From Lingula anatina (Eukaryota; Animalia; Brachiopoda), in contig CM120645.1 of assembly GCA_051362555.1 (NCBI GenBank), forward strand, positions 8,990,001 to 9,054,000: a stretch of 64,000 nt of DNA, given 5' to 3'. Positions 20,944 through 59,610 of this stretch are shown in pieces. Every line of letters begins with the position of its first letter. Position 1 is the first letter of the stretch. The notes beneath the pieces are model-generated. The model worked only from the letters and a program-made list of their open reading frames with translations, was not told the origin of the DNA and did not search any database. The translations under genes and the position numbers were made by a program.

Positions 20944-21004
<61 letters not shown>

Positions 21005-24933: not shown

Positions 24934-27642
24934 CAACGCATACCTCGGCATTAGTTACATTTGTCGTCAGCGCCATAATGGAAGAGCACTCATCATCCTT
25001 GGTAGTTGTTAAAAAAAGGAAACAAAAACAAAAAAAGGATTTGATAATAAATTTGAAAATCTCTGAAATAGGGCACAGAAAATAAGATAGGATTTGAGTA
25101 TGTGGACTGTGCTCATTTACAGTTTAGAAGCTCATACGTCGACGTAAGATTTGAATCGTCCAAAAATAATTGAGGCCTATAAATAAAAGCTACCAGAACA
25201 TCCGTTATAAACGGGTACTTAGTACATGTACGTCCCTTGAACTAGGGTATATAATAAACAGTTGCTGGCCTGTTGACAGGTTGACATTACCTGGTGTTTC
25301 CCCTCGCGCTCCATGTCACCCTCGGGTGCAGGACAACAAATAATAAGATTAAATCAGAGGGTTTACATATTGGGGTGGCGAGAAGAGTCTTTTCATATTA
25401 GAAGCGTGGGAAAGTTAAATGAAGGTCTTATTCATAACTCATGAGTATATTTTCGATATTAACATTAGCAGTATGATCCGGTTTGATGTCAAAATCATTT
25501 CCATTTGCAATATTGCATGCTCAAATCTTTAATTCATTTCAAGTTTTTTTTCAGATTCCTGTTAAACGACTTTTGACAAAGGATTTTTGACGCAAATCTT
25601 GTCTTCTGCTAGATCAAAATTGCACTGTATATACCAATTGTTATTTCACGCCTAGTAGGCCATACATTATGAAAAAAAGAAGAAATTGCACTCCCAATTA
25701 TTTGCAGTTACCTTGCATATCCTATTGTGTTTTGACCTTGACATATATCACCTATTTCGACAGGACAATTGAAACCAGTTCCAACAAATTGCCTTTACGT
25801 AAAAGCAGTGGCCTAGAACAAGTCCAGCTGGTGTCACACATATCTACCGGTAAGTTGTTTTCATGAAGATGTGTAGAAATAATGAATCGCTGAAAGTAAG
25901 ATCACTCGATGCAGGGTGTTAACAAAAAGTATGAACTTGTTCTAGAGTTTCCAAACTCTTTTACAGATATCATTTTGCTAATAGAGTCGTCAAGAGACGT
26001 TGGTGATCATTATGGTACTACGTCTAAGTTTTGGTTTTCAATAATAATCTAAATTTCCAAAATAAAAAAAAAAACTGACGTTGATTCAAAATTGATTCAA
26101 TCGTTATGTGTCCGCTGAGACGTTTCTCTTTATTACCACTGGTCACGTGATGTATCGAGCAGTGGGTGTGGCTGGGGGTGGGGGGGGGGGTGGGGAGGGC
26201 ACGGCTGCCCTTTTTGTCTTATATATTTTTAGAGCCAAATCAAATCTGACTGCATGCCTGCAATAAATTAACATGCTAAAATGGGCCCATCTAATTCGCG
26301 GCGTGTAAATATATTTTCTATTTTATTAATATTGAAAAATCACTGTTTCTTGCCTTTCCCAATTTAACCAATTATGACGTTTAATCGTGCTGGTATGTGA
26401 CACATAGTTTATATTTACCAAACAAATGAGGACAATATTTCTCAGCCGGTGAAAGTATGTATAACCTGATCACTCTAACTGACACGAAATAGTAATTTGA
26501 TTGACATACACAGTTGCATAAATTCGCTAAAAAAGAAAAATAAAAATTGGATGTAGGAATTGGATGTAGGAATAAAAATTGAATAGGAAATTGGATGTAG
26601 GTTAATGAATTTCTTTAATCTTTATGTGTCCGCTGATTTTTTGCTGTTCATGCAGTGTAGAAGTAGGGCAGAGGGGTCGAATTTCTTGTCGAGGTTGCAC
26701 CTATCAGAGTTTGGGCTGGAATAACAAATAGAGAACTTTTATGTACAAGCAGTGGCCCATAACTGGTTCAACTGGGGTGGGGCAAAAATGTATAGAAATA
26801 ATAAATCCTTAGAAGTAAGATCACTCAAGGTGTAAGGTTGCATTTAAGGTTAATCCATCAGAGTTTGGACTGAAATAGAATAAATAAGATTACTTCGTGC
26901 AAGGTGGTAGTGAAACGTATAAACTTGTTCTAGAGCTTCCAAACTTTTTCTACTAACAACATTGTGCTGAAAGATTCACGAAGGAAGATGGTGAACATAA
27001 TTATACTACTTTCTGGTTTTCTTTAAGAATCTAAATAAAAAAATTGTATGCTGATTCAACTTAGTGTCCTCTTAGCTTTCTCTTTTCGCCGTCACTGCCC
27101 CCCGTACGTACCCTGGAGTTGACGTGAAGAGTTTCCGACTTCAATTTGAAGAGCCTAACCACTTCTGACTGCACACCTGCATTATCATTGCACGTGACGT
27201 GGTTAAGGACAGTTAACTTGTAAGGTGACTTCATTGGGGAAAAGTATAATAAGAAAAGACAGGTGATTTAAAAACCCAGTGCAGGGGAACGGGGTCAAAT
27301 TTTCTCACAGGCGCAAGAGGTGACAACAGGATTTTACAATAGTAATCAGGGGCTTTTTTGCCCAAAAAATCGATACAGTCTACTTCATTTTTTATCAATA
27401 TGTATCAGTGACCCAAGTTGTATGTACAATTTGTGTGTTAGAAGGACAATATCTATTTACTAATAACGCATAAGCAAAGTTCGTTGAATCATAAATGATT
27501 AATTTTAAGTAGGATACAAATAAAATAGAATTCTCTTTTACGGTTCGTTGCGCCCATCGAAATATAAAAGACGGGAAAAGGGGTTGTTGCCACCCAGTCC
27601 ACTTTTAAAACAGCGTTATACGAACATACCGAGTTTCTCAAG

Positions 27643-28410
27643 ATGAACAACAACAAGTTGGTCGCAATCTTCTTGGTGGTATTACTGGTGGTCAGTTTGT
27701 CCACGGATTCGGAAGGTAAGTTGAAATGAAATACCATGCCATCCAAACGAGAGTGAAAGAATATGACTTTTTTAAAAAAATTTTACGAGCACATGTTATG
27801 ATTACCGTTGTACATGTGGCCTATTGGATGGCTTTCCAATATTAAACAACAGACAGTGGATCGCATTTGCAATGTAATAAGTAGACGGACAGTTAGATAA
27901 AATGATAAAGAGGAAAGCAATTTTTTATTGATATTTTGTATTTCTTTTTTAACACTTAATGTTTAGGAAGAAGAAGACGACGATATGGTAAAATTCGCCC
28001 AATTGAATCTGACTCGGTGCGTATGAACTAAATAATTAATCAATTAAGCAATTTGATTTTACTAACAGATTTATGCGTATCTAGATTTCACAGACTAATA
28101 TTTGCATCACTTAAAACTGAAACAATTTAATATCAGACCGTTTTGATAAAACGTGGGTACAAGCTATCATGTTTCTCATCAGATTATCTATCAGATTACT
28201 CTTTAGAAACCTGCGATATTCTGTATTCTCTGCGATAAAGTAAAGGTGTCTTCCCTAAATTAAATATAGTTATATGTATAACACGTACAATGACATACAG
28301 CACATTGAATTTTTGTGTAGATTGGCAATGAAAACTTGAAGAGGATCATGAAGAGGGCTGTAGAGGAATCAGATGAACAGGATAAAGAACTTGGTATCGA
28401 CGGAGAGTGA
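27643..28410 (+). CDS. Secreted Arg-rich peptide precursor, array copy A (70 aa)
   Basis: Exons 27643-27715, 27967-28016, 28321-28410: MNNNKLVAIFLVVLLVVSLSTDSE-GRRRRRYGKIRPIESDS-IGNENLKRIMKRAVEESDEQDKELGIDGE*. TATAAAA at 27563, AATAAA at 28519; splice sites conserved across paralogs. Confidence 0.85.
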
Positions 28411-29473
28411 TTTACAAACACCTGCTACCATACAAACCGCTCGAGACGAACCCAACGACACCTTCGCTGATCTAACAGTCGTGCCAGCAATTTATGCCAG
28501 AAATGTAGTACGTAACTTAATAAATACTATCAATTAGGCTTCAATGCACAAACACTAACACTGAAACTTTTACATTTAGAAACTTAGCTTTTTCCTTCTG
28601 GAAATATACGTAAGCCTTGGCCACGACAAACTAGCCAGCAATCCTGAACTTTAGTCGCCATCGGGAGATTTATACTTGAAGTGCTTATTCAAGTAAGTGC
28701 TGCTTATCTGATAATGATATTGATCAATTATCGGAAGAAAAAGATTGGTTTATCTTCTCATAATAATTGGAAGAGACTAAACCCTGTTCCGTGTAGAATT
28801 CATGGCACTGTGCGCTGATTGGTTACTTGTTTCCGCTCACTCTGGACATGTATGTGAGGCAAATATGACAATACAAGTGGTACTGTGCTTTAAAGGAAAT
28901 AACTTGTGCTTTCTTAAGTATAATAAATAGATAACTTGCTTGTACTTGTGTCTTTGAGAATTGAGAATCCTTTTTTATTTTATACCCACTGTCTTGGTGT
29001 TATCCGCGGTATGAGGACATGCATCCAGACTCGTAATTGTTGGTTAGAAAAATATTGAGTTAGAAAGATACAGATTAAAGATACCAAAGATTATTGGGAT
29101 ACACCAAGAAAAAACAAAAGCATAGCCTTTTTAACTTCGCTGTTGCCATATCTTACATTTTTAACGTACACCTTGTGTTTATTTCTTTCAAATATGAGTG
29201 CCACTCTTCTGTGAAATGCCATACTAATCGTAACTATATACAATCACGAAATTCAATGTAAAACAGAAATAAATCTTAGATATCGCATATTGCAGTCAAT
29301 ATATATATAATTTTGAGTGATTTTCAAGAAAATAAACTGCACTCCTACAACATCTACTTAAACGCCAATGAACTGCAGAGGGTATGGGAATGGTAACAGG
29401 CAATTATTGCAAATTGTTTAAAGGCTAATGGAAGTTGGAAGAAATAAATATTAAAATGTAGCCTGTGCACTAA

Positions 29474-29661
29474 GAGCGCATTTAGAACAGCGGACTAACG
29501 GATCCTCGGATCAAATATGGCCGACCAACTTGAATGCTTTCTGTGTAATCCCCGCGGAGAATCTATTTTTATAAAAGTGTCTCATCAGTAATAGGCAAGT
29601 TTTTAAATCGGTTACCATAGTTGATCCGCAGATTTGTTAGTCCGCTGTTCTGAATGCGTTC
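29474..29661. mobile_element. MITE family 3 (TAA target duplication), copy 1
   Basis: GAGCGCATTTAGAACAGCGGACTAAC...GTTAGTCCGCTGTTCTGAATGCGTTC between TAA/TAA. The same insertion occupies the paralogous site 49214-49401. Confidence 0.8.
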
Positions 29662-30162
29662 TAATTCCACCCAGTATTATGGTGGTAATGGAGGACACCA
29701 GGTTACCTCTGGAATGTCGTTAATGAATGTAATATAACACAAGGTGTCACATGAAATGATGTGTCTTTACAAGCGTATCCATGCAAAACGTGTTTCAGCT
29801 TCAGGGGATTAGGAGATAAAAACAACACACAAATATCAGAAAACTATATACCAGCATTATTTACAGCAGCAGGGAATTATGAAAAAAAGACTTGCAGTGT
29901 CAGATTATTTAACACGCTTCACATCAGAAACGAAGCCTGTGACTAACATACAATACGAAGTAAAAATATTGTGATTATAACGGTGACAGCTGCAGGCCTC
30001 AAGGTTACATCTGGCATGTCATTAACAAACAAAATGCATGACACAAGGTGTTTTACGAATTTTACAGGTCACGTCATAAGAAACAGCATTTCAACTTCGG
30101 GGGATAAGGAAAAAATCAAATTATTATACGTGAAAAAATAATTTATAATCTACATGCAGTAG

Positions 30163-33100
30163 TAGTCTAGTGGGATATCCACAAAAGATGAATAGTAGGG
30201 GCATTTTGGGGTAAAAGTTGGGAACCAGGCTTATTAGCATAATTTTGGGATGCTGAATCCGATTTACCCGGTTCCCAAGCGAAATTTTGTGTTTTTAACG
30301 GTCTAATTTGCAAAAAAGCAAAATGGCCGCCAGATTTCCTATTTTCTGCAATATCTCTGGGACTAGACAGGTGAACATGACAAATGAAGTGTCTTTACCC
30401 ATATTTTCAGGGTCGAGGAACATTATTAAGATGTTTCTGTTAGAATTAGATTTACGCAATTTTCCTAAATATGCAAATTAGGATCGCCATTACTGAAAAA
30501 CTGTTTTACTTCTGTATCTCTGTAACTAGGCAAGCAAAAATGACAAATGAAGTGTCTACACCTATGTTCTCAGGGTCAGGGAATGTGATAAATCAGATGT
30601 CTTGTCTTATGGGTAGCACTGACTTTGTGAATCGTGTCCGAGTAGCATCTTTTATTGTTTCTGCTGATAGTTAGAATCTGCCTTCAGAACTGCTTTTACG
30701 TTAACTAGGCAAGCAAACATGACATATGAAGTGCCCACACCCATGTTTTCAGCGGGAAAGTGATTAAGACATTTTCACTATAATCAAATCAGCAATGAGT
30801 GCTACACTGTCACACTGTAGCAATTATTCGAATCTGAATTGAATTTTGCAATTAAATACTGCGCTGCCATTGGGATGTAAACATATTGGATCACAAAATG
30901 GCCCCTTTTACCTAGATTTAAAAAAGATTACCGTATTAATGCAATGGAGGGATTTGCTGAATCAAGTAATTCATGTGATGCAATGTACAGACTTCACATT
31001 TAAAATGGATTTTTTTCAAACATATTTTCTTTGAATTTTTCCCATATATTAGTAATGGATGAAAAAACACTTGTTATCTTGTTCGATATGGCTTTAATAA
31101 ATCAACCCGTGTGAATACATCATCAAAAATTTAATTTAAATAATAATTTAATATTCAAATCAGCGTTATAAACAGCGCATGGATAATTTTAAAGCTGATA
31201 ACGAGGTATTACATTCTTATGAACTCGATATTATCAAGAATATCAGTTGGTAAGGATTTTCTCTGACACAAAAGAATCATCAATACAAATGTGAAAAATG
31301 GAAACTGATAACAATGCGTGCAGCCTCTTCTAGCTGCAACCAGATCCCTCATTCCATGCAGAGAGGTTTCTGAGAGTATGATCCAGTATTGTGTTACACG
31401 CATTAGCCAGAGCTTGCCTAAGCTTGTGCCGATTTGTAGGGTGGACGGGTAAGCTCTTGATTCTGCAAGCGATTTATGCCCACAGGTTTTCTATAGAATT
31501 CATGTCAGGGGAATTTCGTCGGCCAAGGCAACTGGTTTACCTCTTGGTTTTGCAGAAAAGCAGTTATTGCATGGGCATGGTGTGGTCGGGCAGTGTCATC
31601 TTGCAGGATGAAGTTGTCCTGGAAGTACCTTCTTGCAAATTGCAATCAAGTATTCTCTAAAATGTCCCTGTATTTTATCTGGTTGAGGTTTCCGTCAATT
31701 GCCACCAATAGTGTTTTGGCTCCAGAGTGGAAACCGGCCCATACACAGATACTGCCACGGCCACAAGTCACTGTAGTGTGACACAATCTTCGTGCAGTAA
31801 CTCGTCTGGAAACCTACTGACTCTGATTCAGCCATCGCGGTGGTGGAACTCAAACCCTGCCTCATCTGTAAAAATCTACATGAGCCCAGTGCTGTGCCTG
31901 GAAACGCAAATGGCGTCTATCCCACCATGTTGCTCTGTTCATAGAGTTAACCAGCTAAAAGTAGCCTTGCATTCACTAGAGTTCTAGAAACATGCTTTTG
32001 AATGGTAATTTGCCACTCATTTTGTACAGCAAGAGTTGTCTTTGTCCGGTTGTTGCGACATAACCGCAGAAGCAAGCGGTCTTCCCTTCAGGTGGTTACT
32101 TTAGGACATCCTGGCCGTGGTCTCTGTGTTAATGCACCAGTCTGGGCGTGTTTCTGTAAGACGTTAGAAACTGCTCCCTGGGACACATTCAGCTGTCTGG
32201 CAAGCAGTTTGCTTCTGTCCATTCTGGCATAATGCAACAATAGTGTGGCATGTTGCTGCCGTTAGTTCACATACCGTAAGGTCAGCTAAGAGTCTGCAAA
32301 ATATCAAACTCTTCTGACTGGACGTTGTCGAAATATAGAGACTTATTCTGCAGAACTGCTGCCCTTTTATACGCATTCTGTAACCAGCCGAAGAGGACTG
32401 CTCAGAGAAACTGCCACATATTACGTAAGGCGGGCCCTGACCCCCCCCCCCCCCTTCGAATTCTGGTCCCCCCTTGAAATTATAATTTTGACTAGCTGAA
32501 TCATAGTTGTAAACCATACCAAATGGCACCGTTCGCCCTCTTAAATACCAAAATTTTGTGTGGCCCTTCAACAGGCCCCTAACCCGTTGCCAAGTGGGGG
32601 GGGGGGGGGGGGGGGGGGGGGGGCTTTGCATCCGCGGACTCCCCCTTCAAATAAACCTGGATCCGCCTCTGCTCACCTTGCCTTATAATTGATGGGCAAG
32701 CACTGACAATTTCACTGGGAAAGCCTGACAATGCAGGCTGACACGTACGTAAGAGCAGTTCTGAAGGCAGGTTCTAACTATCAGCAGATTGACTTGTGTT
32801 TGACAGATACAGGGAAGAAACAATAAAAGGTGATACTTGGACACGATTCACAAAGTCAGTGCTACCCATAATACAAGACATCTGATTTATCACATTCCCT
32901 GACCCTGAGAACATAGGTGTAGACACTTCATTTGTCATGTTTGCTTGCCTAGTTACAGAGATACAGAAGTAAAACAGTTTTTCAGTAATGGCGATCCTAA
33001 TTTGCATATTTAGGAAAATTGCGTAAATCTAGTTCTAACAGAAACATCTTAATAATGTTCCTCGACCCTGAAAATATAGGTTAAGACACTTCGTTTGTCA

Positions 33101-33324
33101 TATTTGCCTGTCTAGTTCCAGAGGTATTGCAGAAAATAGGAAATCTGGCGGCCATTTTGTTTTTTTGCAAATTAGACCGTTAAAAACGCAAAATTTCGCT
33201 TGGGAACCGGGTAAATCGGATTCAGCATCCCAAAATTGTGCTAATAAGCCTGGTTCCCAACTTTTACCCCAAAATGCCCCTTGTCTCTTATGCAGAGCCT
33301 TTTTTCAAAAATCTCACTAGACTA
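30163..33324. mobile_element. 3.2-kb non-autonomous DNA transposon, Academ-like (TAG...CTA termini, 3-bp TSD, ~500-bp subterminal inverted arms)
   Basis: Termini TAGTCTAGTGGGAT / ATCTCACTAGACTA; TAG duplicated at 30160-62 and 33325-27; empty site CATGCAG-TAG-GAGATAAC in the paralogous spacer at ~49876. Arms ~30198-30700 and ~32748-33280 are reverse complements (mirror ORFs 30471+ and 32774-). The superfamily call rests on termini and TSD only. Confidence 0.8.
31280..32240 (-). mobile_element. Decayed Tc1-like transposase inside the Academ-like element
   Basis: Minus-strand fragments read RPGCPKVTT.REDR (HTH linker), FTDE, ILQDD, LPWP..NSPDMNSIENLW, with stops and frameshifts. Confidence 0.75.
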
Positions 33325-33924: not shown

Positions 33925-34545
33925 ATGAACAACACCAAGTTGGTTGCTCTTAGTGGTACTACTGGCGGTCTGTTTGTCCACTGACTCGGAAAGTAAGCTA
34001 AAATGAAACACCATGTCATCCAAAACGAGAGTGAAAGAAACACAATACGGTGTTGATATACCTGGTAATGTTTTAGAACCTTTTTCTTTTTGGCGAAACA
34101 CTTTTGTAATATAACAAGCTGACAGACAGATGGACTAAATGAAAAGCAGGAAACATATTTAATTGTGAAATAATGTTTTGCGGTTTTTCCTTAAATCCGT
34201 GGCTGCAAGAAGAATAAGACTTATTGGTAAAATTCGCCAAATGCAATATGACTCGATGCGTATGGAATATGATGCACATCTATCACTCAAAATTGAAATA
34301 TTTCTGACTTTTTCGGGAGAAAAAACGTGGTTATTTGCCGGAATGTTTTCTATCAGATTATCCAGCAGAACACTTTTTAGGAATTTGTGAAACTGTTGTC
34401 TCTGTCATGAAGTAAAAAAGACAGTATGATTGATTCAAAAAAATGAAATTTATGCACTGTATAACGTGTACTAGGGCGTATTACACGATTTGTTTTTTTT
34501 TAAGATTAGAAAAGAAGATGTGAAGAGAACTATAGAGAGCAGTTG
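33925..34545 (+). pseudogene. Peptide-precursor array copy B, pseudogene (closest to copy G)
   Basis: 5-nt deletion (AATCC) in exon 1 gives TGA at 33982; exon-2 acceptor AG>GG (~34201); exon-2 donor GT>AT (~34256); exon 3 truncated at ~34545; TATA reads TATACAA. Relic exon 2 reads AARRIRLIGKIRQMQYDS. Confidence 0.85.
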
Positions 34546-34810: not shown

Positions 34811-36204
34811 CACACACTGGACAATAGAAGTGTCACCCCTACTGAACCAATACTTTGGGGGAGATAAATGACTGTGGAATAATATGCTCCTGGTATCATT
34901 TTATTAACATCAAATTTCACAAAAAAAAAAAAAAAAAAAAAAAAAAGCAAAATGAGAACAAAATATACATTCTACCAAGATATGCAGTTTCAAGTCCAAA
35001 ATTAGTACTTAGTGGCATAGCCACGTGACCTAATAATAGCTGCCAGTCTGCGAAGCAAGGATTCATATAATTGTCTGTTGCGTTCAGGGCTTATGCTGGC
35101 CCAAGCATGAAACATTGAATCTAACAGAGTTTGTCTGCTGGTTGGACGGGCATTTGTCAAAAGTTTTGACTTATCATTCAACACATTTTCTATTATGTTT
35201 GCATCCGGACTCTGGGCAGGCCACATCACCCTGCGAATTTCCTGTTGGTCGAACCAATAATCAACTGCTCTGGGTCTGTGACAAGGAGCATTGTCATCCT
35301 GGTGAACAAATGGCTAATTCCTGTCACCAAACATGTTAGTAATAGATGGTAGCAAGTTTGACTCCAAAACATCGATATATTTCAAGTAATTGATGTTTCC
35401 ATCAACCACTACCAAGTCACCAACGGCATGGATGCTGATGTTGCCCCACACCATGATGAATATGCTTCTCCGGGTTCGAAAATTCAGTGTATGTGGTTCA
35501 AATACTTTACTACCAGCAGTTCGCCAGCATCGGACCCTTCTGTCCATAGAGGTCAGATCAAAGCGACACTCATCAGAAAAACTATATAGGACCAATTGTC
35601 ATGGACTGTCCAGTTCCAGATCCTGTTGGCCCTAGTTCACTCTACCTTGCCTGTTTTGTAATGATATAAGAGGTTTCAGTCTGGCTACCCTGCTGTACAC
35701 TCTCTGAGCATGTAACCGACGCCTAGCAGTTTTCACAGACAGATTCTTATTTGTGAAATCGTTCCACTGACAAGCAATGTCGAACCTTGACAACCTGGAC
35801 ATAAAAATCAGTCGTCGGTCTTCACGGTCAGCATTTTTTCTTGGACGACCTATCAGTGGCGATTTGTCTCTTGATCCAGTGTTTCTATACTGAGACCAGA
35901 CCCTCTGCACGGTTCTGACTGAACAAACCAACTGCATCGATAGTCTGACATTGCTTATATTCCGCCTCTACGGATTAATAACTTGACGTCTATAATCGTT
36001 AGAAAATTGCCTGTATCTTGTCAATAGGAGGAAGACATCAATAACATTTGCTGTAAATGTACAAGACCAACAATACGATTCCATGGTACAGGGGTTCTTA
36101 CTCATTAGTCACATTATAAGTAAACCAGGCATTATAACTACCCAAGATCTGCCTTCTTTCAGTTCTCTGATTGAGGGGGTCACACTTCTTTTGTCCAGTG
36201 TGTG
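34811..36204 (-). mobile_element. Full-length, inactivated Tc1-family element (1.39 kb)
   Basis: 30-bp TIRs CACACACTGGACAA(T/A)AGAAGTGT(C/G)ACCCCT; TA duplicated; empty site GGTTTA-TA-TTTACC at paralogous spacers (~39540, ~43225, ~46320). Broken transposase: GRPRK..DR (35632-35937), FSDECRF/MVWG (35314-35595), HQDDNAPCH, WPAQSPDANIIEN...RGYATKY (35002-35229). Confidence 0.93.
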
Positions 36205-37209
36205 TATTTACCAGACAAATGTGGACAATATTTACTAGCCAGTCCAATATCATGCTCATGCACTCTTACTAGCACGTAATAGGTATTTCGATGCTATTTG
36301 ACAATCAGTTCCATGATACATATAATGAAATAGATCTCCTCCTCGGAATGTTGTATTATTAGACAACATATCTGTATAGTTTTGATCCGAAATATGTAAA
36401 TTCACTTATAACAAGTAAAAGAATCCATCGTCACTTGAAATGTTCATTGATTAAGTGTCAATTGGTGACGGAATATTCTTGAATAACTACCTGTCCTTAT
36501 ACCTGCTACAAACTTTTTGTTCTTGTGAATATGCCTGCATGGCTGCTTAACACCAGATTCAGGGATTATCACTACAATACAGAAAACGAAATATAAGAAA
36601 AATATCGAAATCATTCCTGTGTAATCCAAGTTATTGTAATAGCACCAAGTGGAAAAAAAACACAAATAAAAGAGCAGGCTCAGCTTATGCATGATGGAAG
36701 CATTTTAAGTTCAAGCGTTTCAAGAGTTTTACTCTTGATTATTGCACGTGAAACATGTCAAGGACAGTGTACTTGTAAGGTGACTTTATTGGGGAAAATT
36801 ATAATCAGAAAAGACAGCTGATTTAAAATGAGAAAAGGTATGTCACTTAAAAACCCAGCACAGGGGAACGGGGTCAAATTTTCTCACAGGCGCAAGAGGT
36901 GACAACAGGATTTTACAGTAGTAATCAGGGGCTTTTTTCTTAAATCACTCTACTTCAGTTTGTATTAACATGTATCACTGACCCAAGTTGTATGTACAAT
37001 TTGTGTGTTAGGACAATATCTATTTGCTAATAACGCATAAGCAAAGTTCGTTCAATCATAAATGATTAATTTTAAGTAGGATACAAATAAAATAGAATTC
37101 TCTTTAACGATTCGTTGCGCCCATCAGAATATAAAAGACGGGAAAAGGGGTTGTTGCCACCCAGTCCACTTTTAAAACAGCGTTATACGAACATACCGAG
37201 TTCCTCAAG

Positions 37210-37986
37210 ATGAACAACAACAAGTTGGTCGCAATCCTCTTGGTGGTATTACTGGTGGTCAGTTTGTCCACGGATTCGGAAGGTAAGCTGAAATGAAATA
37301 CCATGTCATCCAAACGAGAGTGAAAGAATATGACATACTTTTTTTAAAAATTGTACGAGCGCACTTTATTAATACATGTGGCCTATTGGATGGCTTTCCA
37401 ATATTAAACAACAGACAGTGGATCGTATACCGTCGTGGATTTGCAATGTAATAAGTACATGTAAATGGACAGATAGATAAAATGATAAAGAGGAAAGCAA
37501 TTTTTTAATGATATTTTGTATTTCTTTTTTAACCCTTAATGTTTAGGAAGAAGAAGACGACGATATGGTAAAATTCGCCCAATTGAATCTGACTCGGTGC
37601 GCATGAACTAAATAATTAATTAATTAAGCAATTTGATTTTACTAACAGATTTATGCGTATCTAGATTTCACAGACTAATATTTGCATCACTCAAAACTGA
37701 AACAATTTAATATCAGACCACTTTGATAAAACGCGGGTATAAGCTCTCATGTTTTTCATCAGATTAACAGATTACTCTTTAAAAACCTGCAGTAATCTGT
37801 ATTCTCTGTGATGAAGTAAAGATGTCTTCCCAAAATCAAATATAGTGATCTGTATAACACGTACAAGGGCATATAGCACGTTGAATCATTTTGTAGATTG
37901 ACAATGAAGATTTGAAGAGGATCTTGAAGAGGGCTGCGGAGGGATCAGACGAACATGATAAAGAACTTGGTATCGACGGGGAGTGA
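37210..37986 (+). CDS. Secreted Arg-rich peptide precursor, array copy C (70 aa)
   Basis: Exons 37210-37282, 37547-37596, 37897-37986: MNNNKLVAILLVVLLVVSLSTDSE-GRRRRRYGKIRPIESDS-IDNEDLKRILKRAAEGSDEHDKELGIDGE*. TATAAAA at 37130. Confidence 0.85.
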
Positions 37987-45013: not shown

Positions 45014-47323
45014 TTTACAAACACCTGCTACCGTACAAACCGCTCAAGACGAACCCAACGACACCTTCTCTGATCTATTAATCGTGCCAGCAATTAATGC
45101 CAGAGATGTAGTAGGCAACTTAATAAATAATATCAGTTGGGTTGCAATACACAAACACTAACATTGAAACTTTAACATTTAGAAACTTAGCTTTTACCTT
45201 CAGTCATATACTGGAAATATACGTAAGCCTTGGCTACGACAAACTAGCCAGCAATCCTGAACTTTAGTCGCCATCGCGAGATTTATACTTGTAGTTATTA
45301 TTGAAGTAAATGCTGCTTATCTAATAATGTTATTGATCAATTAAAAGAAGAAAAAGATGAGTTTGATTTCAAATAATAATTGAAAGAGACTAAACCCTGT
45401 TCCGTGTAGAACAGCATGGCACTGTGCGCTGATTGGTTACTTGCTGTCAGTCAGCCTGGACATGTATGTAAGGCCAAAATAACAATATACGTGCCTCTGT
45501 GCTTTAATGGAAATAACACGTGTTTTCTTAAGGAAAATAAACAGATAACATGCTTATACATGTGTCTATAAGAATTGAGACTCTTCTGTGCTTTATACCC
45601 ACTCTATTGGTGTTATACGCGGCGTCTGTATCCGCAGTGCAACTGGTCACGTGATGTACCCAGCAGTGGGCGTGACCTGTAGAGGCAGGACAGAGGGGTC
45701 GAATTTCTCGTCGAGGTTGCACCTATCAGAGGCTGGCATAACAAATAGAGAACTTCTATGTACAAGCAGTGGCCCATAACTGGTTCAACTGGGGTGGGAC
45801 AAATGTGTATAGAAATAATAAATCCCTAGAGGTAGGATTATTCAAGGTGCAAGGCTGCATTTTAGTGTCGAGGTTACAGCCATCAGAGTTTGGACTGAAA
45901 TAAAATAAATAAGATCACTCCGTGCAAGGTGGTAGCAAAAATTATTAGCTTGTTCTAGAGTTTCCAAATAATTTTTTTACAAACAACATTGTGCTAAAAG
46001 ATTCGCGAAGGGCGTTGGTAAACAAAATCATGCTAATTTCTGGTTTTCTTTAAGAATCTAAATTTCGAAAAAAATGATGTTGATTCAATATTTATTAAGA
46101 CAATATGTGTCCTCTTAGCTTTTTCTTTTCACCGTCACTGTCCCAGTTTGACTGCATACCTACAGTGAAAAGAAGCACTTGAATGGGTCCATAGACATCC
46201 CCGGTGTGAAGACAGCTATATCTTTTCTCTTTTTATTAGTTATGAAACTTAAACTGATTCCATCCTTTCCCATTTTCACCAATAAAGGTGTTTTACCGTG
46301 CTGATATGACAAACGGTTTATATTTACCAGACAAATGTGGACAATATTTACTAGCCAGTCTAATAGGTATCACATGATCTTGCAGTCTTTGTGGCCGTGA
46401 TAGCTATTTCGCTGCTATTAAACAACCAGTTCTAAAACAACTGACCTTGAAGATGATACATATAATGAAATAAATCTCCTCCTCGGATTATTGTATTATT
46501 AGACAACATAGCTGTATAGTTTTGATCCGAAATATGTAAATTCACTTAGAACAAGTAAAAGAATCCATCGTCACTTGAAATGTTCACTGATAAAGTGTCA
46601 ATTGGTGACGGAATATTCTTGAATAGCTACATCAATGTCCTTATACCTGTTACAAACTTTATGTTCTTGTGGCTATGCCTATGGATATGGATATGCCAGT
46701 GTCAGGGGTTATCACTATAATACAGAAAAAGAAATTTGAGAAAAATATCGAAATCGTTCCTGTGTAATCCAAGTTATTTTAATTGCACCAAGTGGAAAGA
46801 CACAAATAAAGGAGCAAGCTCAGCTAATGCATGATGGAAGCATTTTAAGTTCTGTTTCAAGCGTTTTACTCTTGATTATTGCACGTGAACGCGGTCAAGG
46901 ACAGTTTACATGTAAGGTGACATTATTGGGGGAAATTATAATAAGAAAAGGCAGGTGATTTAAAAACCCAGCGCAGGGGAACGGGGTCATCTTTCTCACG
47001 GGCGCAAGAGATGACAACAGGATTTTACAGTAGTAATAAGAGGCGTTTTGCCCAAAAATTCAATACAATCTACTTCTGTTTTTACTAACATGCATCAGTG
47101 TCTGTAGGGCAATATGTGTTTGTAGGACAATATCTTTTTACTAATAATGCATAGGCAAAGTTCGTTGAATCATAAATGATTAATTTTAAGTAGGATACAA
47201 ATAAAATCGAAGTCTCTTTTACGGTACGTTGCGTCCATCGCAATATAACAGACGGGGAAAGGCGGGTGTTACCACCCAGTACACTTTAAAACAGCGTTAT
47301 ACGTACATACCGACCTTCTCAAG

Positions 47324-48128
47324 ATGAACAACAAAGCGTTGGTCGCAATCCTCTTAGTGGTACTACTGGTAGTCAGTTTGTCCACGGATTCGGAAGCCCG
47401 TAAGTTACACATGTATTTAACCATCATGCCATGGAAAACGGGTGTGAAAGCATATAACATAGTTGTTTTAGAATTTTACAAGCACATATTATGATTACAT
47501 TTATGGAACATTGGATGGCTTTTCAATATTAAACAACAGACAGTGCATTTGCAATGTAATAAGTAGACAGACAGATAGACAAAATGATAAACAGAGAAGC
47601 ATATTTTCTTTTGAAATGATACTTTGTGTTTCTTTTTTAATCTCAAAGTTTCAAAATTAAGAAGAAGAGCAAATGGTAAAATTCACCCAATTCAATATGA
47701 CTCGGTGCGTATGAACTAGGTTAAGCAACTTACTTTAACTAACAGAATTATGCTTATTTACATTTCACAGCTTAAGATATTCATCAAAACTGAAACAATT
47801 TAATATCAGAACATTTTGATAATAATGATGATTTTGATAATGATGGACATTACCTCGAATGCTTTCATCAGATAATGTGGCACATAACATTTTGGAAATA
47901 TTTAACATTCCGTATTCTCTGTCGTGAAGTAAAGATTGCTTCCAAATATTGAATATATTGTTCTATACGACATATGAACAAGGGCGAATAGCACATTGAA
48001 TTTTTGTGTTGAATTCAATTTTTGATTTTGTGTAGATTGACGATGACAACGATTTGAAGAGAATCATGAAGAGGGCTGCGGAGGAATCAGATGAACAGGA
48101 TAAAGAACTTGGTATCGACGGGGAGTGA
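47324..48128 (+). CDS. Secreted Arg-rich peptide precursor, array copy F (74 aa)
   Basis: Exons 47324-47399, 47649-47704, 48036-48128: MNNKALVAILLVVLLVVSLSTDSEA-LSKLRRRANGKIHPIQYDS-IDDDNDLKRIMKRAAEESDEQDKELGIDGE*. Confidence 0.85.
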
Positions 48129-49213
48129 TTTACAAACACCTGCTACCGTACATACCGCTCGAGACGAATGCAACAACACCTATCAACCGTGCCCGCAATT
48201 TGTGCCGGAAATGTAGTAGGCAACTTAATATATAATATCTATTAGGCTTCAGTGCACAAACACTAACATTTTATATTAAGAAACTTAGCGTTTACCTTCA
48301 GTCATATATTGAAAATATACGTAAACGTTGGCTACGACAAACTAGCCACCAATCCTGAACTTTAGTCGCCATCGGGAGATTTATACTTGAAGTGATTATT
48401 AAAGTAAATGCTGCTTATCTGATAATGTAAAAACTGATCAATTCGAGGAAGAAAAAGGTGGGGTTGATTCTAAATAATCAGTTGAAGAGACTAAACCCTG
48501 TTCCGTGTAGAACCGCATGGCACTGTGCGCTGTTTGGTTACTTGCTGTCGCTCAGTCTGGACATGTATATGAGGCAAATATGACAATACAAGTGGTACTG
48601 TGCTTTAAAGGAAATAACTTGTGCTTTCTTAGGTATAATAAATAGACAACTTGCTTGTACTTGTGTCTTTGAGAATTGAGAGTCCTTTTTTATTTTATAC
48701 CCACTGTCTTGGTGTTATCCGCGGTATGAGGACATGCATCCCGACTCGTAATTGTTGGTTAGAAAAATACTGGGTTAGAAAGATACAGATTAAAGATACC
48801 AAAGATTATTGGGATACACCAAGAAAAGACAAAAGCATAGCCTTTTTAACCACGCTGTTGCCATATCTTACATTTTTAACGCCCACCTCGTTTTTATTTC
48901 TTTCAAATATGAGTGCCACTCTTCTGTGTAATGTCATACTAACCGTAACTATACACAATCACGAAATTCAATGTAAAACAGAAATAAATCTTAGATATCG
49001 CATATTGCAGTCAATATATATAATTTTGAGTGATTTTCAAGAAAATAAACTGCACTCCTACAACATCTACTTAAACACCAATAAACTGCAGAGGGTATGG
49101 GAATGGTAACAGGCAATTATTGCAAATTGTTTTAAGGCTAATGGAAGTTGGAAGAAATAAATATTAAAATGTAGCCTGTGCCAAAGACAATAACAACATA
49201 TTAAGTCCACTAA

Positions 49214-49401
49214 GAGCGCATTTAGAACAGCGGACTAAAGGATCCTCGGATCAAATATGGCCGACCAACTTAAATGCTCGCTGTGTAATCCCCGCGGGGA
49301 ATTTATTTTTATAAACGTGTCTAATCAGTAAGCGGCAAGCTTTTAAACCGGTCGCCATAGTTGATCCGCGGATCTGTTAGTCCGCTGTTCTGAATGCGTT
49401 C
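49214..49401. mobile_element. MITE family 3, copy 2 (co-duplicated with the array spacer)
   Basis: Same TIRs, TAA duplication and flanking sequence as 29474-29661. Confidence 0.8.
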
Positions 49402-50457
49402 TAATTCCACCCAGTATTATGGTGGTAATGGAGGACACCAGGTTACCTCTGGAATGTCGTTAATGAATGTAATATGACACAAGGTGTCTTTACAAGCGTA
49501 TCCATGCAAAACGTTTCTTTTGCTTCAGGGGATTAGGAGGTAAAAGCAACACAAAAAAATCAGAAAAATTGATGCCAGCATTATAAACGTCAGCAGGGAA
49601 TTGTGAAAAAATTGCAGTGTCAGATTATTTAACACGCTTCACATCAGAAACGAAGCCGGTGACAATGCATACAATACGAAGTAAAATATGGTGATTATAA
49701 CGGAGACAGCTGCAGGCCACAAGGTTACATCTGGCATGTCTTTAACAACCATAATGCATGACACAAGGTGTTGTACGAACTTAACAGCTGAAGTCATCCA
49801 AAACATCATTTCAACGTCAGGGGATGAAGGCGAAAAAACAAAATTTACAGATGTGAGAAAATTATATATAGCCCACATGCAGTAGGAGATAACAATTAAA
49901 ATAGCACTTTTTAAAATTTCACTGGCATTTTAGGGTTGGCATAAAGATAACTAACTCAATACTCTGTAACGAGGCGTTTGGTTGTCGTTTCGTACTGGTG
50001 TATTTGCGTGTACTTGCACGGGTGCACGTGATCGGGGCCAAGGACAGTTAACCTGTGAGGTGACTTTTGGAAAAATTGGTACAGTTAATATAATGCAGAG
50101 GGTTTCTAATTCAAACGTAGCGCGATGGATCGGGCTTAAATTACCCCAATGGCGATTGCGTATAAGATAACATTGACGATTTTACCCCAGTGACCAGACT
50201 TTTTGCGCGACAAACAAATTATTCTATTCTTTGTTTTATACTAATATACTTATATGAATAACACAAGATACACATACAATATTTATTCTAATATTTATTT
50301 ATTCTAAAATTTTGCATCACAGTTCATCATCACTTTTAGGAAAATATAAAGGAAATCGTTTTTCGCCTTTACGGTATGTTGCGCCAAACTCAATATAAAA
50401 GACCAGGAAAGGGACCGTTGTCACCCAGTTTACTTTTAAAGCAGCGTTATCCTCAAG

Positions 50458-50988
50458 ATGAAGAACACCAGGTTGGTAGCAATCTTCTTAGTGGTAATAC
50501 TGATGGTCTGTTTGTCCACGGATTCGGAAGGTAAGTTGAAATGAAACACCATGTCATCCAGTGAAAGAAACCCAATATATACGGTGTTGTAGAAACTTTT
50601 GTTTTAGTGAAACTCATTTGTAATGTAACAAGCAGACAGACAGATGGACTAAATGACAAACAGGAAATATATATTTAATTGTGAAATGATGTTTTGCGTT
50701 TTTTCCTTAAATCCGTAGCTGCAAGAAATAGAGGACATACTGGTAAAATTCGCCAAATCAAATATGACTCGGTGCGTATGGAATATTATGCATATCTTTC
50801 ACTCAAAATTGAAATATTTCAGACTTTTTCGAAAAAAAACGGGGTTATTTGCTGGAATGTTTTCTATCAGATTGTCTAGTGAAACACATTTGTAATGCAT
50901 ACTTTTTAGAAATTTGTGAAACTCTGCATTCTCTGTCGTGAAGTAAAAGACAGCATGATCGAACATATACTAGGGCGTATTACACGAT

Positions 50989-51036
<48 letters not shown>

Positions 51037-51141
51037 GGAAATGAAGATGAGAAAAGAACTATGAAGAGAGCAGTGGTGGCATCAAATGAACAAGACATCG
51101 AATGGTATCGACGACGAGTGATTCAAAGAATAACTGCATAA
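50458..51141 (+). CDS. Secreted peptide precursor, array copy G (77 aa, frameshifted cationic tail)
   Basis: Exons 50458-50530, 50719-50771, 51034-51141: MKNTRLVAIFLVVILMVCLSTDSE-AARNRGHTGKIRQIKYDS-IGNEDEKRTMKRAVVASNEQDIEWYRRRVIQRITA*. TATAAAA at 50394; ~41-nt poly-T before the exon-3 acceptor. Confidence 0.78.
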
Positions 51142-54289: not shown

Positions 54290-54496
54290 GGGTGCGTTCC
54301 CAGAGATTTAGATTTAGATCGACCTAACTCCCTGGGGGTTCACGCTAAATTGCAGTCAGCCGAGCGCGCACCATAGCTAATTACCTCCTTACAGCTTTTA
54401 GTAGGCAGGACAGACGCTTAAGCCGGCTAAGCTGACAATAATCTAGTGAGACTCCCCACAGGGATAGATCGATCTAAAGTCTATGGGAATGGGGTC
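54290..54496. mobile_element. MITE family 2, copy 2
   Basis: Homologous along its length to 20185-20401; flanked by TTA/TAA. Confidence 0.8.
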
Positions 54497-55057
54497 TAAG
54501 CCAAGCTATTATAACTACACGCGATGGAAAAAAACAAATTAAATTAAAGGAACGGGGTCAGTCAATGTATAGCGGGGGCAGTTAAAGCTCAAAGGTTCCA
54601 AACGTTTGACTGTGGACCAGTGCACGTGATGGTGGTCAAGGACAGTTTACTTTTAATGTGACACTGCTGAGGAACATTACAATACAGACAAGGCATGTGT
54701 CCGTGGTGTTTAATTTTTTTGTTGACAAGGAGGTCTTAGTAGTGGTCAGAGGAAATTTGTACAAAAAATACAAAATAAAATATATGAAATATTACTTGAT
54801 TTTTACAAACATACATGTATATTGAAGATACTGTATATGTAGAACATGTGTGTTTAAGGGTAACATATGTTCCCATTACGCATAGGCAAAGTTCGTTGCA
54901 CCATAATTGATTAAATTTAAGTAGGACACAAATGAAATCGAATTCTCTTTTACGGTACGTTGCGTCCATCGAAACATAAAAGACGGAGAAAGGGAGTGTT
55001 GCCACACAGTTCATTTTTAAAACAGCGTTATAATACAAACATTCCTAGCTCCTCAAG

Positions 55058-55809
55058 ATGAACAACACCAAGTTGGTCGCAATCCTCTTAGTGGTAATAC
55101 TGATGGTCTGTTTATCCACGGATTCGGAAGCCGGTAAGTTGTAAGGAAACATGGCGAGTGATAGAATACAATAAAGTTGGTTTTTATGTTTTAGAAGCAC
55201 ATATTAATTATAATTACGCGTAGTCTATGGGATGTCATTCTAATATAAAACAAAACAGAGAACCGCATCTACACTGTAACAAGAAAGACTCGAGGACAAA
55301 CAAGAAAATAATTTATTTTGAGATGACATGTTTTGCTTTATTCTTTTTTAATGCTAAAGCGGTCCGTCTCAGAAGAAGAAGATCGGTGCGTATATGAACA
55401 GTGAATGAACAACGCACTTTAAGCAATTTATATTTATCAGCAGATTTATGCTTATTAATATTAAACACCTAAAGATATCACTCATATTTGAAACAATTTT
55501 ATAGCAGATTCTTTTGCGTATTTGCTCGATTTTTTATCATGGAAGTATGTAGCAAGATAGTTAATATAACAGGAAAATATAACAATTAACTTTTATTAGC
55601 AGATGTGCTACAATATATGTCACAGCTGAAGATGTCACTTGTTAGAAATGTTTGTAACTCTGTGTATGTTTTTTGTAAAAAATGAAGATAATGTGTGGGC
55701 GTCGATTTTTTTATAGATTGTTAATGCAGAAGATTTGAAGACGATCTTGAAGAAGGCTGCGATGGAATCAGGTGAACAGGACATAGAACTTGGTATCGAC
55801 AGCGAGTGA
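55058..55809 (+). CDS. Secreted Arg-rich peptide precursor, array copy H (64 aa, 26-nt micro-exon 2)
   Basis: Exons 55058-55133, 55360-55385, 55717-55809: MNNTKLVAILLVVILMVCLSTDSEA-AVRLRRRRS-IVNAEDLKTILKKAAMESGEQDIELGIDSE*. Confidence 0.82.
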
Positions 55810-57606
55810 TTTTCAGAAACATGCTACATACTGAAACGAACCCAACGACACTGATATAATGATACATATATCAAGTGCGACAGCAATTTATTCCAAAAAT
55901 AAAAGGCAACGTAACGATTTATATCAATAACGCCGCATGACAAAAAATCTAACAGTGCACAATTGGACATTTAGAAGCTTTTCTTTTACTAACAGTGAGA
56001 TACTTGGCTACGCAAAAGAAGCAAATAATATTTATCGTACGGCATTCCTTGTTTACTTAATATTATTACCAATTAAAGGAATGGTTTTAATTTTAGTTAT
56101 AAACAGAAGCTATGCTTAAACTCAATTCATGTAGATCCGAATGTTTGCCGCTGGTTACCAGTCTGGACATGTATGCGAGGCAAATATGACAAAAAGGAGT
56201 GTTAGTTTGCTATTAAAGAAATAATACATTCTGTTTTCTATAGGCTACTGAATAGACAACTTGCTTGTTCATATATCTAAAATAAAAGTAATGTAAACTT
56301 AACTGTGTAATTTATGTAAGTCTGCTTGCCCAGAGAATTGACTGTCTTCTACATTTTTACATACACTGTATTGGTGTTGACTGTCTAATCTGTATCCCAA
56401 AATGCCATAGCGTGTTTATCAAAATATAATTCGGTTTGGAAAAATCGTAGAGATTAAAAACTGTCGGTATACACCAAATAATACAAAAATGTGATCTCTC
56501 TTTATAAAACCTTAAGTTACATTTTTCGTAGTTCTCGTAAAAATGAGTTGGCGGCCTTCTTCCCCGAGGAAGGACAAACCAGTATAAGGCATACTGTTTG
56601 TAACACCGCAATAGCAATATCAACTATAAAATCTTTGTTTGATGGGCTCAAATTGGCGAAATGGGAAGAATGGCGCTTTGGCAACGATTGTGCACAAAAT
56701 TGTGGTCATCCGTGGGGGAAAATTGTAAACTTAAAGGAACAGGGTCAGCTATGCATGACGTACGCAGTTAAAGTTGAAGCGTTTAACTGTGGACGACTGC
56801 ACGTGATGATGGTCAAGGACAGTTTACATGAAAGGCGACACTATTGAGAAAATTACAGTAAAGAAAGGGCAGGTGATTTTTAACCCAATGCAAGGTATCG
56901 GTGTACAGTTTTCTCAAGGGCGAATGAGGTGACAAGATTTTACAGTAGTGTTCAGAGGCTTTTGAAAAAAAAAACACATTAAATTAAGTCTTTCGCTTGT
57001 TTTTACTTACATATATAAATGTCACAAGATAAGTGTTTATAGCACAATGGATGTCTTCTAATAACGAATAGACAAAATCCGCTGCATCATAAATTATTTA
57101 TTTTAAATAAGATACAAATAAATCGAATTTTCTTTTACGGTGTGTTGAGTCCAACAAAATATGAAAGACAGGTAATGGGAATATTGCCAAGGTCAGTTTA
57201 CATGAAAGGCGACACTATTGAGAAAATTACAGTTAAAAAAGGACAGGTGATATTATAACCCAGTGCAAGGGATGGGTGTCTAATTTTCTCAGGGGTGAAT
57301 GAGGTGACAAGATTTTACAGTAGTGATCAGAAGCTTTTTGGAAAAAAATACAATATAGTCCTTTACCTTTTTTCTCACATACATAAATGTCACAGGATAT
57401 TTGCACAACGTGTTTATAGCACAGAGTATGTATTCTAAAAACGCACAGGCAAAGTTCGTACTGAATTTTCTTGTACGGTACGTTGAGTTCATTATTTTTC
57501 GCCTTTACGGCATGTTGCACCCAGAGCATAATAAAAGACGGGAAATGGGATTGTGACGCACTTCACATTTAAAACAGCGTTATACGAACATACCGAGCTC
57601 CTCAAG

Positions 57607-58411
57607 ATGAACAACACAAAGTTGGTTGCAATCCTCTTAGTGGTACTACTGGTGGTATGTTTGTCCACAGACTCGGAAGCCGGTAAGTTGTAAAAAAACA
57701 CTATGTCATCTAAACGAGAGTGAAAGAAAAATACATGTAATGCGGTTTTGATATACAGTGTACGTATCTTACAATAAATATTTGTTTGAGAGTTTTTAGA
57801 AGGTCATGCATTGTCATGTCATGTAGTCCGATAACATAATTTTAATATAAATACAGACAGCGAAGCACATACATGTACCACTACGTAATGTAACAAGCAC
57901 ACGGACAGATAGACCAAATGACAAACAAGAAAACAGATATTATTTTGATATGATGTTTTGCGTTTCTTTTGAAATCCATAGGTAAAGGAAGAAGGAGGAC
58001 ACAATTCGTAAATATTCTTCCAAATGAACATGACTCGGTGCGTATGCATTAAGTTGAGCAATTATTGCATTTATGAGCAGATTTATGCTGTCCTAATCTT
58101 TATTAAAGCTAATAATCAAAATTGAAACGATTTAATAACACTTAGATTAAACACTGGTATCTGCTTAATTGTTCTCAATCAGATTGTGTAATGTACTGCT
58201 TATTAGAAATATGTGGAACACTGAAGTCACTGTATTCTGTGTCGTGAAATAAATACGGCATGATCGCTTCTTAGATATTGAAAATCATGCACTCTATAAT
58301 GTGTATAAGAGCGTTTAAATCTTTTTTGTATAGTTTGGTTATGAAGATTTGGGGAGAAATATGAAGAGAGATGTCACGAAACTCGATGAACAAGACGACC
58401 AAAAAAGGTAG
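57607..58411 (+). CDS. Secreted Arg-rich peptide precursor, array copy I (69 aa, most divergent)
   Basis: Exons 57607-57682, 57982-58037, 58334-58411: MNNTKLVAILLVVLLVVCLSTDSEA-GKGRRRTQFVNILPNEHDS-FGYEDLGRNMKRDVTKLDEQDDQKR*. Confidence 0.8.
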
Positions 58412-59610
58412 CGACGCCGAGTGAAGCAAAGAAACATGCCACATACCGCTTGAAACGAAGGCAACTTCAACTTCGCTGATCTATCAAGTAATTTATAACA
58501 GAAATAGAATGAACGACGATTTATGCCAGTTAGGCAGCAATGCACGAAATCTAACAGTGAACTTTAGTGCATCTGGAAACTTTGCTCTTGCCTACAGTGA
58601 TATACTGGAAATATATGTACTTAAGCCATGGAAACGCCAAACAGACCAATAATCCTAAAAGTTAGTCGACACCGCCCAAAAATGTAATGGTAGTGATAGT
58701 TATTAAGTACTTATTGTTTATCTGCCACCATTATTAATCAGTAAAGGGTACAGTTAGATTAAGGATTGCTTTGATTTTAAATATTATATAGTGGAAGCGA
58801 CTAGCACTCAATCCATGTAGATCTGCAGTGTATACGCCGACTGTTGCAGTTTTGTCCGGACATACGCGTAAGGCAAATATGGGGAGACAATTGGTATTAT
58901 ACTATCAAAGATATAGTACATTCTGCTTTAAGTAGGATGATAACCAGATGATCTGCTTGTGAATCTATCTATGTTTTAAGCCCACTGTATTGCTGTATCC
59001 CGACTCGCGATTGTTGGTTACAAAAATGCACTGTGAATTAGAAAGATCAGAGACACCCAAGACTATTAGAATATACCGAAAACCCCACAAACGAAATTTG
59101 TGCAATATTGTTTGTAAATAAAAACTTTTGCTGACTCATTGCATCATAATTTTTAGGATGATGAGTCGTATGGAATATTTGATATATAACTTTTATCCCT
59201 TAGGCCATAACATTTATAACATTCAACAATTTGTTACATTGTTAGTATAGTGGGGTTATATAATAAATGCGGCCTCGTTTGGCCAAATATCGAACAACCA
59301 ATATTCTTTGTTCCCTTCTTTCTTGTTGTGAATGGAACTTAAAAGTTTGTGGTGCACTAGGAAGGAGGAGGAGACATAAGACATTTGCCCCCATTTATAC
59401 CACGTTTAGTCATATTGATAAAATGCCACAGCTAACCAATTGGAATTGTACGCGTTCCAGTGCAATAATTCATTTGAAAATAAACGAGAGTTTATTGTAT
59501 CGCATTGCAACAGAATTTTGAGATGTAGTCTGTGACAATACAAAGTAAAGTAAAATTGTAGACCTTTATATTATAGTGACAATTTCAGGTCACAAAGTAA
59601 CGCTTGGTAA

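Follow-up and report, generated by a model that had tools for sequence, protein, structure and literature searches.

What do nine small units, each of three exons, encode when they stand in tandem on the plus strand of a brachiopod chromosome? The units occupy 27.6 to 58.4 kb of a 64,000-nucleotide (nt) stretch of Lingula anatina DNA (assembly GCA_051362555.1, contig CM120645.1, positions 8,990,001 to 9,054,000, forward strand), hereafter the window. A reading of the sequence alone had proposed secreted precursors with a signal-like, an Arg-rich and an acidic part, perhaps antimicrobial. Our analysis reveals that the units are protein-coding genes; their products may well be host-defence precursors, a reading for and against which we see the case as evenly balanced.

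Organization of the array

A repeat finder returned a 118-nt exon-1 block in nine copies (A to I, Table 1) with a spacing of 2549 to 6277 nt, in agreement with the nine same-strand units about 2.5 to 6.3 kb apart that had been described, and blastn with unit A found no tenth copy within the window. In eight of the nine copies the predicted GT-AG splicing is in frame with intron phases 1 and 0, as previously stated and now borne out by splicing at coordinates, and yields proteins of 64 to 77 amino acids (aa). The earlier exon-1 length of 73 or 76 nt applies to these eight, copy B having 68 nt; exon 2 spans the 26 to 56 nt originally given, and exon 3 measures 78 to 108 nt with its stop. The sequence TCAAG stands directly 5' of the ATG in 9/9 copies, so that the CAAG noted there is general. 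A TATA box lies about 80 nt 5' of the ATG; the expectation of a TATA or TATA-like box holds in canonical form (TATAAAA) in five copies (A, C, D, E and G), with variants only in B, F, H and I. Copies F, G and I have no AATAAA at the corresponding position.

About 390 to 450 nt 5' of the ATG, most copies carry a CACGTG box and then an AAGGACA element (for example at 27191-27215). CACGTG is found in five of eight aligned copies, within otherwise diverged flanks, and may belong to a putative common enhancer.

Coding capacity and selective constraint

For G and I the frameshifted tail was masked, and copy B was excluded, in all counts of distance, of the ratio of nonsynonymous to synonymous substitution rates (dN/dS) and of its maximum likelihood (ML) estimate, omega. 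Under neutral substitution simulated along the unit tree, codons 1 to 54 remained free of stops in the seven other tips in only 2 of 3000 simulations (P about 0.0007); for exon 2 alone the count was 85 of 3000 (P = 0.028). Because all eight frames are open at the former level and exon 1 is under purifying selection, the units are to be regarded as protein-coding genes, constrained at least in exon 1. In a codon model, omega is 0.44 (p = 0.033) when exon 1 is taken alone and 0.58 (p = 0.029) when exons 1 and 3 are combined, and pooled dN/dS amounts to 0.31, 0.89 and 0.39 for exons 1 to 3. At the DNA level the mean pairwise distance is 0.10 in exon 1 (confidence interval 0.06-0.15), 0.32 in exon 2 (0.26-0.38) and 0.21 in exon 3 (0.17-0.26, an interval that overlaps intron 1 and the 3' flank), set beside 0.26 and 0.33 in the introns. 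Exon 1 is thus clearly conserved, exon 3 less clearly so, and exon 2 diverges like the introns. Gene conversion could be part of the cause of the exon-1 similarity.

Further signs of coding use come from the splice sites and from exon lengths. A frame-blind score ranks the exon-2 acceptor first among 13 to 22 AGs in all eight copies; the exon-3 acceptor is first in only four, its ranks in A, C, D and E being 4, 3, 3 and 2, and in these it was assigned by homology. The four length classes of exons 1 and 2 combined (102, 123, 126 and 132 nt) are all multiples of three, and the Arg residues of exon 2 are written with five different codons. Gap lengths divisible by three in the DNA alignment (2 of 5 in exons, 33 of 110 outside them) add no support. 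A chance repeat or a transposon can be rejected, the constraint falling on reading frame and splice sites.

Anatomy of the predicted precursors

Residues 1 to 25 comprise a basic start, a hydrophobic core (11-residue hydropathy of 3.65-3.89) and then S-E-G/A, so that exon 1 can be read as a predicted signal peptide cleaved after this last motif. Exon 2 contributes three to six Arg and a net charge of +2 to +5, and ends in acidic residues and Ser, the acidic ones being missing in H. Exon 3 opens with an acidic triplet, continues with K-R-x-x-K-R on a weakly amphipathic stretch and closes with the tail, its net charge being -4 to -7 in six of the eight open copies. The boundary between variable and conserved parts coincides with the exon 2/3 junction, not with the Lys-Arg (KR) pair. 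An S-x-E motif, one per peptide and with a variable middle residue, is present in 7/8 copies. No Cys follows the signal in the spliced proteins, as the sequence-only reading had claimed.

Other features of that description hold in part. Its L-KR-I-x-KR motif is exact in five of nine copies (A, C, D, E and F) and inexact in the rest. All eight open copies keep the second dibasic pair, with Ala after it in seven; the first is kept in six, always before Ile or Thr. The acidic tail is long in six of the eight open copies, where 17 aa of net charge -6 to -7 follow the second dibasic site; in G a frameshift makes it cationic (23 aa) and in I another makes it short (13 aa). The count of eight acidic residues against one Lys in the last 17 aa of copy A fits the computed net charge of -7.

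The charge of any released peptide depends on the cut, and peptides freed at the KR sites are less cationic than had been implied: 0 to +4 after a cut at the first dibasic site, and +1 to +6 after trimming, for 20 to 30 aa, with a cut at the second. The segment ahead of the first acidic residue (12-17 aa) carries +4 to +7, with an isoelectric point (pI) of at least 11.7 in all eight copies. Arg content is at least 13% in each of the eight. The cationic segment is low in hydrophobicity and has no Trp, and an anionic window lies C-terminal to the cationic part in seven. The array offers six distinct short exon-2 peptides, one of them common to A, C and E.

A host-defence reading and its weight

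By analogy with known families, the genes may encode convergent linear cationic host-defence precursors, a proposal that we judge to have an even chance of being correct. The pattern of conserved exons 1 and 3 around a variable exon 2 resembles the usual pattern of defence-peptide families; since the variable part is usually the active one in such families, the exon-2 peptide is favoured as the active product. The signal peptide would be removed after S-E-G/A, and the exon-3 propiece, with its short amphipathic stretch around K-R-x-x-K-R, would neutralise the cationic part. A convertase would then cut at the second dibasic pair and separate the Arg-rich peptide from the acidic tail. Ile or Thr after a dibasic pair is disfavoured by convertases; the second pair is the likelier site because it is kept in 8/8 copies with Ala after it in seven, the first preceding Ile or Thr. 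If trimming then proceeded to the acidic residues with which exon 2 ends, the 12-17-aa peptide of net charge +4 to +7 would remain. Given its low hydrophobicity and lack of Trp, this peptide would be more likely to act by binding to anionic surfaces or by cell entry, in the manner of oligo-arginine, than through classic lytic helices.

Several observations weigh against this reading. The Arg run of A, C, E and H is a possible furin site, and cleavage there would destroy the cationic peptide. The signal/cationic/anionic layout is common to many precursors that have no part in defence. The peptides are weakly hydrophobic and, if cut at a dibasic site, modestly cationic, and with a cut at the second site only, the pI exceeds 11 in just three of eight copies. 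A cationic-amphipathic filter (18-residue window, hydrophobicity 0-0.6, moment 0.1-1.0, charge +3 to +10; PMC7387483, re-implemented here) is passed by only four of the eight, at hydrophobicities of 0.01 to 0.14, near the lower bound. The amphipathic moment is not clearly higher than in shuffled sequences, with p values of 0.04-0.09 in six copies and of 0.56-0.67 in the other two, G and H. The data do not support positive selection on exon 2 (ML omega 0.69, p = 0.30), and exon 3 taken alone gives 0.68 (p = 0.25).

Expression data belong on the same side of the balance. Of nine RNA runs from 2026 under the same species label, four were sampled (6-25% of each; tissues unknown, no housekeeping control), and reads were placed at 90% likeness on 43900-50950, which covers E, F and exons 1 and 2 of G. 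In run X1 the four bins with E exons have mean depths of 0.33, 0.17, 0.07 and 0.58, equivalent to some 270 nt or about one read pair. Its first mate lies on the minus strand, as a plus-strand transcript would give in most stranded libraries; the depth of 0.07 corresponds to 16 nt of copy E exon 2 in that bin, and the bins being adjacent, an unspliced pair is possible. Run X7 shows short pieces in four bins, three of them with exon sequence and one without, and runs X2 and X4 have no reads over the exons of the E/F region. No splice joint above the listing threshold was found in X1, X2, X4 or X7, so that RNA over the predicted genes amounts to trace reads and genes of the E/F type are near-silent in these four libraries. 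By comparison, expression of myticalins, the defence peptides of mussels, averages about 3400 transcripts per million in gill (PMC12294457). What stands of the antimicrobial proposal is the layout and the pattern of conserved ends and variable middle; the trace RNA without a junction does not favour it.

Nearly all reads within 43900-50950 fall on a short repeat at 49230-49400. It lies in a short inverted-repeat element with two copies in the window (49198-49417 and 29465-29677), and diverged relatives of this element are common in all four RNA runs, within other transcripts.

Alternative functions

Secreted phosphopeptides of the statherin/SCPP kind, regulating calcium-phosphate or matrix deposition in shell, chaetae or pedicle, offer another explanation, in which the acidic exon 3 would be functional and the basic part would bind phosphate or polyanions. 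We consider it unlikely. Within the secreted region it is exon 3 that is conserved, and S-x-E, which is the Fam20C site, is kept in 7/8 copies while its middle residue varies, even though each peptide has only one. The introns of SCPP genes are typically all in phase 0, which the phase-1 first intron does not match, and a variable basic exon with pseudogene turnover suits defence better. The Lingula shell proteome paper describes a calcium-phosphate shell and no SCPP orthologues, and it reports no secreted acidic proteins (PMC4595640); short unannotated genes could have escaped shell proteomics. The more specific idea, that the cluster is an independently evolved invertebrate counterpart of statherin and histatin, with phosphopeptides controlling calcium-phosphate deposition and possibly also acting in defence, which Lingula shell studies missed because the genes are unannotated, is in our view very doubtful.

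A lineage-specific neuropeptide, hormone or pheromone precursor would likewise have a signal-like N-terminus and several basic sites; convertase cuts at the Arg run and KR would free the middle part or the acidic peptide as a receptor ligand, and very low RNA abundance would suit expression in few cells. Against this stand the absence of Gly before the conserved dibasic site in all eight copies, the lack of repeated paracopies and the fact that the middle part is the least conserved. No family motif was found among the Lingula precursors in the PMC8557429 supplement (430 mentions of Lingula), the motif matches there being nemertean PDF/cerebrin signals and a myomodulin, not the family. The neuropeptide-like option raised by the sequence-only reading is thereby weakened, and we would give it little credence.

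There is a similarly slim chance that the product is a secreted polycation with no immune role, serving mucus, adhesion or gamete recognition. A cationic segment low in hydrophobicity and without Trp would agree with such a role, as would fast change in a secreted peptide, which is typical of reproductive proteins. The repeats, Tyr-richness and size typical of glue proteins are missing, however, and no expression points to gonad or pedicle.

Individual copies and turnover of the array

Table 1. Coordinates of the units, of a partial duplicate and of a neighbouring gene in the window
Feature	Positions	Strand	ATG	State	Exons	Other signals or basis
Copy A	27563-28524	+	27643	open, 70 aa	27643-27715, 27967-28016, 28321-28410	TATA 27563; AATAAA 28519
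Copy B	33925-34545	+	33925	pseudogene	exon 1 33925-33992; exon 3 from 34505
Copy C	37130-38100	+	37210	open, 70 aa	37210-37282, 37547-37596, 37897-37986	AATAAA 38095
Copy D	40479-41445	+	40558	open, 73 aa	40558-40633, 40881-40936, 41243-41332	AATAAA 41440
Copy E	44157-45127	+	44237	open, 70 aa	44237-44309, 44574-44623, 44924-45013	AATAAA 45122
Copy F	47244-48128	+	47324	open, 74 aa	47324-47399, 47649-47704, 48036-48128	variant TATA
Copy G	50394-51141	+	50458	77 aa, tail frameshifted	50458-50530, 50719-50771, 51034-51141
Copy H	54975-55903	+	55058	open, 64 aa	55058-55133, 55360-55385, 55717-55809	AATAAA 55898
Copy I	57529-58411	+	57607	69 aa, tail frameshifted	57607-57682, 57982-58037, 58334-58411
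Promoter-only partial duplicate	56798-57189	+		upstream/promoter region of the unit	without exons	blastn of unit A
15-hydroxyprostaglandin dehydrogenase gene	61500-63640	-		multi-exon		XP_013422206.1

Copy B has four lesions: exon 1 is 5 nt short, which brings a frameshift and a stop; the exon-2 acceptor is lost (TGG at 34200-34202), as is the exon-2 donor (AT at 34256-34257); and exon 3 is truncated, ending near 34545 at sequence that matches the upstream flank of the units. Copies G and I keep an open frame across the dibasic region. In G, a late exon-3 frameshift swaps the acidic end for a cationic one, the last codons of the family being recognisable in another frame, and this end may represent either decay or a new peptide. 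In I, an A run near 58400 contains a frameshift, possibly a sequencing error, that brings the stop forward; the copy has also lost the first KR. Copy H has the shortest exon 2 of the family, and its second dibasic pair is KK. The frameshifted segment of G (51106-51141) holds, as a second cationic stretch, Trp, Tyr and three Arg.

Copies C and E differ by only about 2%, with introns 98% identical. The flanks of D are 98% (upstream) and 99% (downstream) like those of E, while its exons differ by 7-26%, and units C, D and E (36.5-46.8 kb) appear to be mosaics, a pattern pointing to unequal crossover or gene conversion. The array as a whole shows birth-and-death turnover.

These lesions also raise the possibility of a once-functional family that is now largely silent and decaying, with some near-identical copies perhaps being alleles assembled in tandem. 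The damage in B, the tail frameshifts of G and I, the missing AATAAA of F, G and I and the trace RNA would all agree with it, and the distance between C and E is close to the species heterozygosity of 1.6% (PMC4595640). Nevertheless, frames, splice sites and start context have been kept over up to 30% divergence (at the P of about 0.0007 given above), exon 1 evolves about three times more slowly than the unit average, and on the unit tree at least five copies are too divergent for alleles. We therefore regard general decay as quite improbable.

Two insertions separate members of the array. A Tc1/mariner element with terminal inverted repeats and a TA target duplication lies between B and C (34811-36204); its decayed transposase frames match Pfam DDE_3 and HTH_Tnp_Tc3_2, and the empty site is kept in paralogous units at 39528, 43215 and 46309. 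Between A and B, a 3.1-kb insertion (30197-33281) is bounded by 466-nt terminal inverted repeats that are 96% complementary; its two internal frames tested gave no Pfam match.

Database searches and novelty

The host assignment agrees with the neighbouring minus-strand gene, a 53-aa exon of which matches Lingula anatina 15-hydroxyprostaglandin dehydrogenase at 100% identity. Since this neighbour is present in the protein collection and the peptides were not found there, the latter appear to be unannotated. An exon-3 profile was run against 1.84 billion representatives, with own-family controls (8 proteins) at E values of 3e-8 to 4e-15; its sole match, P0002, is a tandem-repeat protein, unrelated, whose score came from six repeats. 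An exon-1 profile was scored on 7982 candidates from 5.8 billion proteins of 17-95 aa, with a control at 6e-8 to 8e-12, and gave two matches at E 1.5 and 2.4, both rejected as chance. When each member was left out in turn, six of eight were recovered at E 0.001, so that distant relatives could escape. Pfam returned no match for the eight exon-3 peptides or for copy A exon 1, a single match among PDB sequences (E 0.24) was rejected, and a 30-aa exon query of the ESM Atlas gave no usable match and is uninformative.

In the literature, a full-text motif search gave unrelated matches only, and a motif search of the supplements of PMC4595640 and PMC13425148, files that may hold no sequences, was blank. 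No paper describing the family was found, subscription journals and bioRxiv supplements lying outside the search, and the chance that it has already been described in Lingula immune-system work of the myticalin group is roughly one in four. The literature searched yielded no brachiopod defence peptide of the linear cationic type, and brachiopods go unmentioned in a 2023 review of antimicrobial peptides from marine invertebrates (PMC10608444). Profile searches and gene models therefore support the earlier proposal of an unannotated, lineage-specific family of signal-like/Arg-rich/acidic layout: the family seems to be without close relatives and is apparently lineage-restricted, with distant relatives possible in other taxa.

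Other elements in the window

On the minus strand, a likely Ly6/uPAR (quiver-like) protein has its last exon at 20675-21064; its C-terminus is hydrophobic and its Pfam QVR match weak (E 0.02). At 400-1438 and 2297-4175 there are inverted repeats (one pair, 381 nt) and a tandem array whose imperfect units recur about every 165 nt.

Comparison with known peptide systems

The closest counterparts are the myticalins of Mytilus and the modiocalins of Modiolus, confined to mytiloid bivalves according to PMC5577615. They form tandem clusters with pseudogenes, conserved ends and a variable middle (PMC5577615, PMC12294457), and their precursors share with the Lingula genes a Cys-free tripartite layout, a dibasic site and a conserved signal and tail around an Arg-rich middle (distances of 0.10, 0.32 and 0.21 in Lingula). 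Myticalin C peptides start with (G)RRRR(R)Y (PMC5577615, Table 1), and copies A, C and E have a similar start. By the myticalin standard for the mature peptide (Arg over 10%, pI above 11), the Arg content is reached in 8/8 copies and the pI in three or eight, depending on the cut assumed. The differences are nonetheless considerable. The host belongs to a different phylum, and the myticalin gene has a first exon of 5' untranslated region only, with signal, mature peptide and KR together in one exon and a single phase-1 intron in the tail, whereas the Lingula units have a TATA box about 80 nt ahead of the ATG and three coding exons, with introns in phase 1 at the junction with the signal and in phase 0 where the variable part ends. 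The Lingula signal, compared by eye with the myticalin consensus, has the hydrophobic core and terminal E-G alone in common with it, and neither profile search brought up a myticalin; the anionic tail measures 17 aa in contrast to 35-75 aa, there is no amidation Gly, and net charge is weaker. Identity with myticalins is ruled out by taxon, intron positions, signal and tail length.

Ascidian Ci-MAM, Ci-PAP, styelins and clavanins are likewise 50-100-aa signal/cationic/anionic precursors with a conserved signal, and such ascidian precursors (styelins and clavanins, for example) are reportedly cut before acidic residues; Ci-MAM-D/E have RRRRR runs like the Lingula Arg run (PMC7387483). Their mature helices are clearly hydrophobic and amphipathic and lack basic processing motifs, whereas the Lingula cationic exon is barely hydrophobic and the propiece has a conserved dibasic helix; no sequence match was found. 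We read the Lingula layout as convergent on, and not homologous to, myticalins and ascidian linear peptides.

The statherin/histatin genes of the vertebrate SCPP cluster are tandem, tiny and multi-exon, and encode short secreted charged peptides with S-x-E in a calcium-phosphate-using host. The Lingula array resembles them in gene size and arrangement, in S-x-E (7/8 copies) and in its host, and departs from them in its phase-1 first intron, basic-then-acidic order, dibasic sites and apparent lack of homology.

The precursor layout is thus of a known kind that has arisen repeatedly, and no new kind of mechanism is involved. Even so, the array is an example of microexon peptide genes missed by annotation in a reference genome, and its six different short peptides are cheap to synthesise. 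If they are active, the family would add a further independent origin of the signal-cationic-anionic precursor, one in which exon boundaries set the variable peptide apart from the conserved parts.

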